DNA of 25,029 nucleotides from an uncultured Candidatus Saccharibacteria bacterium (GTDB lineage: Bacteria; Patescibacteriota; Minisyncoccia; Phycocordibacterales; UBA9973), in contig CAZHDU010000003.1 in NCBI GenBank assembly GCA_964531535.1, positions 2,177-27,205 on the forward strand, in the 5' to 3' direction. Position numbers and translations under genes: made by a program. Positions 13,844 to 17,102 of this stretch are shown one piece after another (position 1 is the first letter of the stretch; each line of letters starts with the position of its first letter). The notes below the pieces were generated by a model, which saw only the letters and a list, made by a program, of their open reading frames with translations, did no database searches and had not been told where the DNA came from.

Positions 13844-14803
13844 TTATTTTTTACTAATTATTTCAATGGCCTTGGTGATGAGCGGGATAATATCATTATA
13901 GATTCGGAGCTCAGGAATTTCCGCAAGCTCAAACCATCTCGCTCCATCGAGCCCACCAGATTTTTCTAGAACCAATTCTTGATATTCACTCTGCGCCAAA
14001 AAGTATACTACCCGTTTTAATATTTTTCCTTTCTCTGGATGAGCAGCCACATATTCATTTTCTCCGAGCTTTTCTTCGATTTCAATATCTAGCCCGATTT
14101 CTTCTTTGATTTCTCGCATGGTCGCAGTGGCTTCATCTTCGCCGTCTTCAAAACCACCCTTGGACAAAGTCCAATAACCAAACACGTCGTGGACTAGGGC
14201 AAAATACGTCTTGCCATCCGCTTTAGCATAGACTAGAGCTCCACCCTTTTTTTCAACTGGTAATTTGGATATGTCGATTGGCTCTTTGCCATCGCCTTTT
14301 TTCTTGCTGACTTGTTCTTTGCCCGGTTCGCCGATTTCTTTATAAACCGCGCCCAAGACACCATTTACGAATTTACCAGAATTTTCACCGCCAAAAGTCT
14401 TGGCTAGTTCGATGGCTTCGTTGATGGCCACCTTTGGAGGGACTTCGTTGCGATCGCCAAACAAAAGCTCGGTGAGGCCGATACGCAAGATATTTCGGTC
14501 AATGATAGAGATCTTGTCGATTGGCCAATCTGGGGCCGCTTTTTCTATAATCTCGTCGATGGAAGCTCGATTGCGCAAAACTTTTTCAGTCAACAAAAAC
14601 ACAAAGTGATCGTCTTCGAGACCAGGAGCGAATTCTTTTAGATTTCTTTTTAAAATTTCCTTAATTTTTTCTTCAGGAAATTCTTTAGTTTTAGTTTCTG
14701 GTTGAGTATTTTCGCCACCAGCCACAGACTCACCTACAGGAGAAAAATCCCATTCAAAAAGAGTTTGTAAGACTATTGATCTAGAAAGGTGCCTGTTGGC
14801 CAT
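13844..14803 (-). CDS. nusB: Transcription antitermination factor NusB fused to a C-terminal Nudix hydrolase domain
   Basis: [49 protein letters not shown]; then [28 protein letters not shown] (Nudix box). Confidence 0.92.
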
Positions 14804-14885: not shown

Positions 14886-15110
14886 CTAGCTCTTAGCTTG
14901 AGCTGCCTTCGCCTTCTTCTGCTTCTTTTCAGCCTTTTTAACCAAATCTAAAACCTTTTTACCGCGGTAAAATCCACATTGACCACAGACAGTGTGGCGC
15001 TTCTTTAGAGCCTGACAGTTTTCACACTTGGCAAAGCTGGTTTCAGCTAGCGCGTGGTGTGAGCGTCTGTTCTTTGTATGCGATTTTGTATGTCTCATTC
15101 GTACTACCAT
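14886..15110 (-). CDS. rpmF: 50S ribosomal protein L32 (bL32)
   Basis: RHTKSHTKNRRSH...CENC...RHTVCGQCGFYRGK, with a Lys-rich tail. Confidence 0.95.
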   Translation of the reverse strand: MVVRMRHTKSHTKNRRSHHALAETSFAKCENCQALKKRHTVCGQCGFYRGKKVLDLVKKAEKKQKKAKAAQAKS

Positions 15111-15153: not shown

Positions 15154-15182
15154 TTGTCTTTTCTAGAGGCCCGTGATACCAT
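15154..15182 (+). promoter_or_regulatory. Promoter for the thrS leader
   Basis: TTGTCT (15154-15159), 17 bp including TG, TACCAT (15177-15182). Confidence 0.65.
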
Positions 15183-15188
15183 AAATAC

Positions 15189-15332
15189 TGTAGAGATTGT
15201 TATGGCTACCAACCATAATCCCCGATAAGGGACCAAAAGCTAATCTACAAATAATGAGTAAAAAGTTGGGTGGAACCGCGAACTAGACTCGCCCCGACAG
15301 AAATGAGCAATCATTTTTGTCGGGGCGATTTT
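15189..15332 (+). ncRNA. T-box riboswitch leader (tRNA-Thr sensing, transcriptional type)
   Basis: T-box GGG-TGGAACC-GCG (15268-15280) pairs with CGC-CCC (15290-15295) as the antiterminator. The alternative 18-bp terminator spans 15289-15328 plus a T tract. ACC (Thr) triplets at 15208 and 15232. Upstream of thrS. Confidence 0.85.
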
Positions 15333-15359
15333 AATTTATAAGCAAATAATATAAAACAT

Positions 15360-17102
15360 ATGGAACAAGAAAAATTACACAACACAAGACACTCCTTGGC
15401 TCACCTTCTAGCTGCTGCAGTGCTAGAACTTTACCCAAATGCTAAACGTACGATCGGTCCAGCTATAGATAACGGATTTTATTTTGACTTTGAATTCTCT
15501 ACACCCATATCAGATACAGATTTGCCAAAAATAGAAAAAACGATGCGAAAAATTTTACCAACTTGGACTACTTTTGAGAAGTCAGAACTCTCTGCTGACG
15601 AAGCCAAAAAAGAATATCCTGAAAATCCATATAAGCACGAATTGATAGACGAATTTACAAAGGATGGACAGAAGGTTACTTTTTATAAATCAGGCAACTA
15701 CTGGGATTTGTGTAAAGGTGGGCACGTAGAAAATATGAAGGAAATCGCGCCTGATTCCTTTAAGCTCGATCGCGTCGCTGGCGCATACTGGAGAGGAGAT
15801 GAAAAAAATAAAATGCTGACTCGTATCTACGGTCTCGCATTTAATACCAAAGCAGAGCTCGATGCATACATCCTGCAACAAGAAGAAGCCAAAAAAAGAG
15901 ACCATCGCAAACTAGGACGAGAGCTAGACCTATTTGTTTTTTCAGATTTAGTTGGAGTCGGTATGCCACTTTTTACTCCAAAAGGAAACGTCGTGCGAGA
16001 ACAAATAATCGGATTCTCTCGTGAGTTAAACAATGAACTAGGTTTTGGAGAAGTACATACTCCAAACATAAACAAGGGAGAATTATTTAAAATTTCAGGG
16101 CATTATGATAAATACAAAGAAGACATGCTGTCTGTTACCTCTCAATATGTATCGGATGAAATGTTCTTGAAACCCATGAACTGCCCCCAGCACACACAAA
16201 TTTATGCTTCCCGCCCTCGAAGTTATCGAGACTTGCCTATACGCTATTCAGACTTTGCAGTTTTATATCGAGACGAGAGACCGGGAGAAATGTCTGGGCT
16301 CACAAGACTAAGATCCTTTTCTCAAGACGATGGTCATATCTTCTGTCGTGAAGATCAAATAAAAAATGAAATCAGTAATATTTTATCTGCTATTCAAAAA
16401 GCCTTAAAAGTTTATAAAATAGACTATTGGATGCGCTTGTCATTACGAGATCCAAATAAAAAAGAAAAGTACCTAGGAGATGATTCAGTTTGGGAAAAAT
16501 CTCAAATGATAATGCGAGAACTTTTGAAAGAAAAAAATATTACCAACAAGGAAGCTGAAGGTGAAGCTGCCTTTTATGGACCTAAAATTGATATTATGGC
16601 CGTAGACGCTATCGGCCGAGAATGGCAAATATCTACAATACAACTTGATTTTAATCAACCAAAACGTTTTGAACTTGAGTATGCTGAAAATGATGGCACG
16701 AAGAAAACTCCAGCGATGATCCACCGAGCCTTAATTGGATCCCCTGATAGATTTCTTGGCATTCTAATAGAGCATTATGCAGGTGCATTCCCTCTATGGC
16801 TCTCACCGGTGCAAGTGAAAATAATTCCTGTGCGAGAAAATCACAACGAATACGCCCAGAAGGTTTATGAGATGTTACGAGAAAACAAAATACGAGTTGA
16901 GTTGGACAATGGAGATTCAAATCTGGGTGGAAAAGTTCGCGATGCCAAGAAAAACTTGATGCCGTATTGGATCGTCATCGGTGATAAAGAAATTGAAGCC
17001 AATAAAATTACTCTGGAATCGAGAGACGCTGGAAATTTGGGCCAACTATCTCAAGAAGAAGTCTTGGCGAAACTATTAGAAGAAATTAAGAACAAAAAAT
17101 AA
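15360..17102 (+). CDS. thrS: Threonine--tRNA ligase (lacks the N-terminal TGS domain)
   Basis: RHSLAHLLAAAV, DLCKGGH, GAYWRGDE, RDHRKLG, LKPMNCPQH, RLRSFSQDDGHIF, AFYGPKID, MIHRAL. Confidence 0.98.
   Translation: MEQEKLHNTRHSLAHLLAAAVLELYPNAKRTIGPAIDNGFYFDFEFSTPISDTDLPKIEKTMRKILPTWTTFEKSELSADEAKKEYPENPYKHELIDEFTKDGQKVTFYKSGNYWDLCKGGHVENMKEIAPDSFKLDRVAGAYWRGDEKNKMLTRIYGLAFNTKAELDAYILQQEEAKKRDHRKLGRELDLFVFSDLVGVGMPLFTPKGNVVREQIIGFSRELNNELGFGEVHTPNINKGELFKISGHYDKYKEDMLSVTSQYVSDEMFLKPMNCPQHTQIYASRPRSYRDLPIRYSDFAVLYRDERPGEMSGLTRLRSFSQDDGHIFCREDQIKNEISNILSAIQKALKVYKIDYWMRLSLRDPNKKEKYLGDDSVWEKSQMIMRELLKEKNITNKEAEGEAAFYGPKIDIMAVDAIGREWQISTIQLDFNQPKRFELEYAENDGTKKTPAMIHRALIGSPDRFLGILIEHYAGAFPLWLSPVQVKIIPVRENHNEYAQKVYEMLRENKIRVELDNGDSNLGGKVRDAKKNLMPYWIVIGDKEIEANKITLESRDAGNLGQLSQEEVLAKLLEEIKNKK

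Follow-up and report, generated by a model that had tools for sequence, protein, structure and literature searches.

The window analyzed here, the whole 25,029-nt stretch of DNA (G000:C3:2177-27205), comes from a genome of 726 kb in 80 contigs, estimated to be 94.65% complete. The small genome is of the Candidate Phyla Radiation (CPR)/Patescibacteria type, as a first-pass annotation of the window had supposed. Within the window, rpmF and thrS diverge from a 249-nt intergenic region, and the ~170 bases 5' of thrS form a leader whose T-box elements lie at 15189-15338 (Table 1). The downstream open reading frame (ORF) encodes threonyl-tRNA synthetase (ThrRS) according to its Pfam domains, in keeping with the first-pass assignment of the switch to thrS. 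The leader is very probably a tRNA-Thr-responsive T-box transcription attenuator of thrS in a minimal build, with a sensing domain of ~60 nt and an RNA of ~110 nt up to the end of the antiterminator.

Table 1. Features of the thrS leader and its flanking genes, in window coordinates
Feature	Position	Strand	Description	Basis
P1, 5' strand	15189..15199	+	P1a UGUAG 15189-15193; AG purine bulge 15194-15195; P1b AUUG 15196-15199; holds the conserved AGAGAUUG	P1a covaries
P1, 3' strand	15241..15249	+	P1b UAAU 15241-15244; P1a CUACA 15245-15249	Pairing and covariation in relatives
P2, specifier hairpin	15200..15218	+	6-bp stem 15200-15205/15213-15218; 7-nt loop CUACCAA 15206-15212	Covariation, invariant ACC
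P3, variable hairpin	15221..15231	+	CCC-GAUAA-GGG	Present in nearly all relatives; forms in the minimum-free-energy fold
Vestigial P4/A-rich joining strand	15232..15240	+	ACCAAAAGC, with a second ACC 15232-15234	Comparison with relatives
Purine-rich linker	15250..15265	+	AAUAAUGAGUAAAAAG, unstructured; site of Stem III in about half of the relatives	Fold energy 0 kcal/mol
T-box antiterminator	15266..15297	+	A1 15266-15270/15293-15297; bulge UGGAACC 15271-15277; A2 15278-15281/15289-15292	RF00230 alignment, covariation
Intrinsic terminator	15289..15338	+	18-bp hairpin 15289-15328; U-rich tract 15329-15338	Terminator call, fold energy
Predicted sigma-70-type promoter	15154..15182	+	-35 TTGTCT 15154-15159; 17-nt spacer; extended -10 TGaTACCAT (TG 15174-15175, hexamer 15177-15182)	Sequence reading
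thrS	15360..17102	+	Threonyl-tRNA synthetase, 580 aa; regulated gene	Pfam tRNA-synt_2b 1e-42, HGTP_anticodon 2e-22, tRNA_SAD 5e-11
rpmF	14886..15110	-	Ribosomal protein L32; divergent, bounds the leader space	Pfam Ribosomal_L32p 3e-15

The antiterminator region aligns to the RF00230 positions aGGG-UGGUACC-GCG...CGUCCC at high posterior probability, and its 3' strand is also the 5' arm of the terminator, so that the two helices are mutually exclusive. ViennaRNA gives -32.4 kcal/mol for the terminator and -7.4 kcal/mol for the antiterminator, the usual T-box asymmetry, and the whole leader has a fold z-score of -4.5 against shuffles. The alignment, the 18-pair hairpin with its U run and the two energies bear out the textbook antiterminator and terminator of the first-pass annotation. 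An overlapping terminator, with a hairpin of -32 to -56 kcal/mol and a U run, is found in all 23 leaders examined, and its upper-stem sequences differ between lineages. Stem III, which about half of the family has between the sensing domain and the switch, is not present in this copy, whose 16-nt linker does not fold. The same zero fold energy is seen in 21 other members, as against -6 to -21 kcal/mol in those bearing Stem III, and the purines flanking the Stem III site (GAG...AAAG) are kept here.

Control could instead be translational or mixed, as in the ultrashort ileS T-boxes of Actinobacteria, the hairpin then not being mainly a terminator. Every T-box described before with its specifier in a terminal loop is translational (PMC7583486), and the U tract of this terminator is interrupted (UUUUAAUUU). 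However, the hairpin ends 31 nt 5' of the thrS ATG and leaves the start region untouched. Ribosome-binding-site sequestration was not found in the fold, where nothing pairs with the start region and no Shine-Dalgarno sequence is sequestered. In addition, a GC-rich stem of this length followed by a U run is a standard intrinsic terminator, conserved in every leader examined. We regard translational or mixed control as very improbable and favor attenuation of transcription. Between the terminator and the gene, a -10-like TAATAT lies at 15347-15352, 7 nt before the thrS ATG, with no convincing -35 element; it could conceivably act as a weak basal promoter independent of the terminator.

Upstream of the switch, the predicted start and the linker delimit a sensing domain of the ~60 nt that had been estimated before. 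In the family as a whole this domain is a four-way junction, of which the present copy is a three-way remnant. The P2 loop carries the Thr codon ACC at 15208-15210, followed by A15211. The hairpin at the P3 position changes in length and sequence from relative to relative. P4, a fourth mini-hairpin directly 5' of the P1 3' strand, folds in ~26 of 44 relatives, typically as A-CC-(A-rich loop)-GG-C-UAAUC, and in this copy its 3' side has a single G (ACCAAAAGC), forming no stable helix. The basal helices, the two hairpins and both ACC triplets all lie where the first-pass annotation had placed them; its layout is right about the helix and hairpins, which are better described as a degenerate four-way junction than simply as two hairpins. 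Its statement that AGAGA is missing was mistaken. AGAGA occurs at 15192-15196, where it belongs to the basal helix (5' strand) instead of a distal bulge, and the family conserves it within (R)AGAGAUUG.

To place the leader in its family, ThrRS loci were taken from 60 relatives and their upstream regions compared. The same leader lies 5' of thrS at eight of them. R1, a covariance model made from six leaders, detects the element in 17 of 151 genomes sampled evenly across the order. With a second model, R2, strong matches scoring 78 bits or more occur in 25 of 151 sampled from the genus. Three more members came from scanning 185,579 species genomes by pattern; their records are titled Patescibacteria group bacterium UBA3466, Candidatus Saccharibacteria and Candidatus Paceibacterota. 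The family set comprises 44 distinct leaders (alignment A7). The downstream ORF is ThrRS at all but one of 26 loci checked, which include 23 order and genus loci and one further locus of the loop-ACC kind from the phylum sample. The first-pass annotation had held that a minimal transcriptional T-box would be a new architecture. The element lacks canonical parts, and no description of CPR/Patescibacteria T-boxes or of terminal-loop thrS T-boxes was found in the searchable literature (subscription journals being largely outside its coverage), which agrees with that claim; these genus and order counts make it a family and not a peculiarity of one genome. At the exceptional locus (L038, genome G154), a hydrophobic ORF of 198 aa comes first after the compact Thr leader, and thrS is not directly next.

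Covariation among the relatives supports the proposed helices. In the 44 leaders, 93.8% of pair cells hold standard pairs, compared with 32-42% when the partners are slid by 1-3 columns, and cells with changes on both sides number 131, compared with 39 ± 5 in shuffles. None of 500 shuffles reaches the observed values. Model-based alignments were used; MAFFT alignment of the full leaders misaligned the variable P3/P4 region. A 23-sequence set also served for the analysis of covariation. All six P2 pairs, four of the five P1a pairs and the outer A1 pairs covary. P1a occurs as UA, AU, GC and CG pairs among relatives, and in P2 97% of cells are paired, with changes on both sides at all six positions. 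P1b (AUUG/UAAU, with its terminal G-U) is invariant in 41-43 of the 44 leaders and the two-purine bulge hardly varies, which places both beyond covariation testing; their invariance suggests a tertiary or recognition role.

The minimal form is also found in lineages whose ThrRS is only ~55-67% identical, again with compensatory changes, and this persistence across diverged lineages argues for function and against decay. It bears on the view that the sensing domain is a decaying relic, the leader being a constitutive or non-specific attenuator, or one that is being lost, with no reading of tRNA-Thr by way of the apical ACC. This copy has indeed lost P4 and Stem III, the leader is deleted in most of the genus, the closest relative included, and one thrS leader (L058) keeps its antiterminator without a recognizable sensing domain. 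Against decay stand the invariant ACC and its loop, together with P1a and P2 pairing that is kept by compensatory changes over 44 lineages, among them others without Stem III and P4. The invariant triplet and the compensatory changes therefore indicate purifying selection on the structure. We consider a relic improbable, and a working sensor remains our reading of the domain.

Conservation also decides between the two ACC triplets. The ACC of the P2 apical loop is invariant in 44 of 44 distinct leaders. The loop reads CUACCAA in 33 of them, and the others (CCACCAA, UCACCAA, UUACCAA, CUACCGA, CUACCAC, CAACCAA and one 8-nt variant) all contain ACC. The second ACC (15232-15234) is not conserved, being absent, for example, from L034, L035, L014, L017 and L022. 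It recurs because the linker A and the CC of the P4 5' strand together make up "ACC", and we reject it as the specifier. Both triplets had been put forward as candidates by the first-pass annotation, which suggested a covariance model of relatives' thrS leaders as the arbiter; the apical candidate stands and the internal one is a remnant of P4. A pseudoknot between CCAA of the loop and UUGG of helix A1 was also rejected: A1 varies (CCGGG, UCGGG, CUCGG and others), and the loop does not change with it. To look for other codons, a pattern made up of AGATTG, a codon not beginning with A, CTAATC and the T-box was run against the 185,579 species genomes. There were 14 matches, of which three are true members, all with ACC shifted by one base, and the remainder are canonical Firmicute T-boxes or chance. 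Since the members recovered all carry ACC, the AGAUUG/UAAUC junction class seems to serve Thr alone and offers no natural specifier swap.

The shape of P2 raises a further alternative, in which the hairpin, instead of displaying a codon, is a protein operator, for instance a tRNA-like arm by which ThrRS regulates its own gene, as in E. coli thrS. With its 6-bp stem and 7-nt loop of the form YU-NNN-AA, P2 does resemble an anticodon stem-loop. Yet the loop shows the codon ACC and not a Thr anticodon (GGU, UGU or CGU), and a complete T-box antiterminator follows, with a UGGA that matches the tRNA. An operator is the least probable of the alternatives considered here, and we continue to read P2 as a codon display.

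The genome provides a tRNA that fits both proposed contacts. Host tRNA-Thr(GGU), at G000:C24:6755-6827, has discriminator U73 and no encoded CCA, and its UCCA end is complementary to the UGGA of the bulge (15271-15274). Other T-boxes of the same order, located ahead of other aminoacyl-tRNA synthetase (aaRS) genes, have UGGC or UGGU at this place. The other two host tRNA-Thr genes (CGU and UGU) would mismatch ACC at the wobble position. Beyond the codon, the loop sequence 5'-UACCAA-3' is complementary to tRNA positions 37-32 (A37, U36, G35, G34, U33, U32). Modification at position 37 and the U-turn normally limit such pairing to three bases, so that a six-base contact can be inferred only.

We propose the following course of events. 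Transcription would start at ~15189, and the first ~60 nt would fold as a junction in which P1, with its conserved purine bulge, carries P2 stacked upon it, while P3 and the vestigial P4 branch off. P2 would then display ACC in an apical loop of seven nucleotides, similar to an anticodon loop, where the anticodon of tRNA-Thr(GGU) may pair with it in a loop-loop contact. If the tRNA is uncharged, its 3' UCCA could pair with UGGA in the T-box bulge and hold the weak antiterminator (about -7 kcal/mol) against the terminator (about -32 kcal/mol), allowing RNA polymerase to read into thrS. If the tRNA is charged or absent, the terminator would form and transcription would stop at the U tract. In this scheme the binding of tRNA, the distinction between its charged and uncharged states, the point where transcription starts and all tertiary contacts are inferred.

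The short sensing domain depends on where the transcript begins. The promoter in Table 1 predicts a start at ~15189-15190. A start site far upstream, as would give a normal Stem I, was looked for among the relatives. The end of the best sigma-70-like promoter lies 12-18 nt 5' of AUUG in 22 of 23 leaders. These promoters are often near consensus (TTGACA-16/17-TATTAT), the promoter of this window sits at the same position, and loci with a gene other than rpmF upstream show the same arrangement. From the rpmF start codon (15110) to P1 there are only 78 nt, and similarity between relatives starts at the promoter and P1. Because of the promoter position in the relatives and the short distance from rpmF, we take a normal-length Stem I as excluded on comparative grounds. 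In the opposing view, the transcript starts further upstream, in or beyond rpmF, and the 60-nt domain is only a part of a normal Stem I. The promoter of this window matches consensus at just 8 of 12 positions and is not listed by the promoter tool, and in a longer RNA, 15158-15163 pairs with 15190-15195 at minimum free energy. Nevertheless, RF00230 aligns no Stem I in the space available (69 model positions are deleted), and the relatives place their promoters just before P1 at loci with other upstream genes as well. We judge an upstream start to be more improbable still than translational control, and keep the short leader.

The genus relatives that have no T-box (L004, L005, L006, L008 and L010) leave only ~70-100 nt between rpmF and thrS, and in them the thrS ATG follows ~7-9 nt after the end of an extended -10-like TGnTAnnAT box. 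Their thrS may be expressed leaderless or nearly so.

At the Rfam gathering threshold, no family matches anywhere in the window. The Infernal scan with the Rfam T-box model that had been suggested earlier succeeds in aligning the antiterminator, with an E of 3e-4, and fails to reach the cut-off. The alignment is confident over the antiterminator only. Other sub-threshold Rfam matches (AS-pc01, BSnc120 and miRNAs) cover the terminator hairpin alone and were rejected. In the RF00230 alignment and by reading of the sequence, we did not find a long Stem I with K-turn, S-turn specifier loop, AG bulge and distal-loop elbow platform. A K-turn in P1 was considered and rejected, as the 3' strand has no tandem G-A signature. 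The first-pass annotation had seen neither an elbow-binding platform nor a Stem II, and both absences are confirmed: Stem I is deleted in the alignment and AGAGA occurs only in the basal helix, while no Stem II or IIA/B element is conserved across the leaders, where P3 varies freely, P4 is vestigial and no S-turn or CCGUUA-type element is found. A functional analogue of Stem II is conceivable. By its predicted switch domain, its codon and its match to the tRNA, the leader is a genuine T-box, one that fails the Stem I/II/III architecture and the Rfam threshold. A second T-box was not found in the host genome with RF00230 or the R1 model; a weak RF00230 match on contig C11 was rejected, as it falls within coding sequence and shows no T-box features.

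Several of our observations weigh against a functional tRNA sensor and have to be set beside those that favor it. The nearest relative, whose ThrRS is 93% identical, and most of the genus do without the leader, which is therefore dispensable. The RF00230 score of 26.7 bits is far below the cut-off of 93. The elbow-binding platform, which a review calls essential for transcriptional T-boxes (PMC7583486), is missing. So are Stem III and a stable P4, which puts this copy among the most reduced members of the family. The promoter is a modest match (8/12 plus the TG), below the threshold of the promoter tool. Finally, fitting the covariation alignments to the model biases the pair counts toward the structure; the slid-partner control keeps relatedness and is a fairer comparison than shuffles, and it still gives far lower values.

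How so small a domain could hold a tRNA is a separate question. The missing elbow platform and Stem II could be replaced by the A-rich P4 loop or joining strand together with the invariant P1b and bulge. In its broader form, the proposal is that a transcriptional T-box of ~110 nt senses tRNA co-transcriptionally through only two base-paired contacts, one in the codon hairpin and one in the bulge that binds NCCA. Support for both contacts would come from a new junction module, composed of the AUUG/UAAU helix with its purine bulge and the A-rich P4 or joining strand, which would stand in for the elbow platform, Stem II and even Stem III. We give this broader proposal an even chance of being correct.

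Other thrS leaders place the element in a wider setting. In other Patescibacteria, L085 and L107 (both G206) and L081 (G210) are thrS T-boxes with a long, canonical-looking Stem I and an internal ACC-A specifier, so canonical and minimal thrS T-boxes coexist in the phylum. Three compact Patescibacteria thrS leaders (L116, L106 and L105) share with the present one the ACC in a 7-nt hairpin loop, the UGGA bulge, the terminator and the downstream thrS, but lack the P1 AGAUUG/UAAUC junction. They take the forms of a bare hairpin, a hairpin in a simple stem, or a hairpin followed by a Stem IIA/B-like element. Such variety suggests several routes of T-box reduction within the phylum, and reduction seems to be general in this group.

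Two further kinds of leader were noticed. In the G183 thrS leader (L058), antiterminator and terminator are intact and a near-consensus promoter stands in place of the sensing domain; L043, from a congeneric genome, has the full domain. L058 may be a T-box without a specifier domain. In the order, reduced T-boxes with UGGC or UGGU bulges lie ahead of AspRS-like ORFs (L064, L066, L067, L045-L047, L049, L051 and others). These have a K-turn-like UGAUG, a Stem I that is a hairpin of 3-4 bp, and an internal AGUA-GAC/GAA(C) specifier region whose codon register is ambiguous (Asp, Glu or Asn).

Two observations concern proteins. On the reverse strand at 13844-14803 of the window, a single ORF encodes both a complete NusB domain and a NUDIX hydrolase domain. 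Among the relatives, the ThrRS matches of G014, G060, G026, G051, G005, G050 and G019 are only ~410 aa long, begin at about residue 171 of the ThrRS encoded here and are without the N-terminal (TGS/editing-side) part.

Transcriptional T-boxes are held to need a long Stem I with an elbow-binding platform, as the tRNA must bind fast, and intermediate or ultrashort Stem I to belong to translational T-boxes, in which Stem II is then essential (PMC7583486). The family described here pairs the smallest kind of codon display with a strong terminator, contrary to this rule. If the broader proposal above is correct, the elbow platform, Stem II and Stem III are not intrinsically required for kinetic, terminator-type control. 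A working leader would set a new lower bound for a kinetically controlled tRNA sensor; its compactness would suit it to structural and single-molecule studies, and it might serve as a small component of synthetic tRNA-responsive switches. CPR/Patescibacteria are thought to scavenge amino acids, which makes control of aaRS genes by charging level physiologically interesting. Annotation of the Rfam or TBDB style misses T-box regulation in these bacteria: the TBDB collection was built from RF00230 and an Actinobacteria-specific class II model (PMC7778990), neither of which would report this element.

Compared with known systems, the leader shares with the canonical class I transcriptional T-boxes (RF00230; B. 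subtilis tyrS and thrS) the UGGNACC-bulge antiterminator and the mutually exclusive intrinsic terminator. In addition, the codon matches the aaRS, the bulge base matches the discriminator, and the NNC codon is followed by a purine. Unlike them, it has no K-turn, internal S-turn specifier loop, AG-bulge/distal-loop platform, Stem II, IIA/B pseudoknot or Stem III, and its codon is located in an apical loop inside a junction instead of an internal loop. The glyQS-type T-boxes are likewise transcriptional and without a Stem II domain, but they are known to keep a long Stem I with the platform, and Stem III (PMC7583486), and this leader has neither. In codon display the leader resembles the ultrashort-Stem-I ileS T-boxes of Actinobacteria (Sherwood, Grundy and Henkin 2015, as cited in PMC7583486 and PMC7778990), which also present the specifier in the terminal loop of a short hairpin and have no elbow platform. 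Those T-boxes are translational, with an RBS sequestrator, and depend on Stem II (PMC7583486), whereas this leader ends in a terminator, has no recognizable Stem II or pseudoknot and serves Thr and thrS in the CPR. Its specifier hairpin, moreover, is enclosed by a conserved basal helix (AGAGAUUG/CUAAUCU) that also carries extra hairpins.
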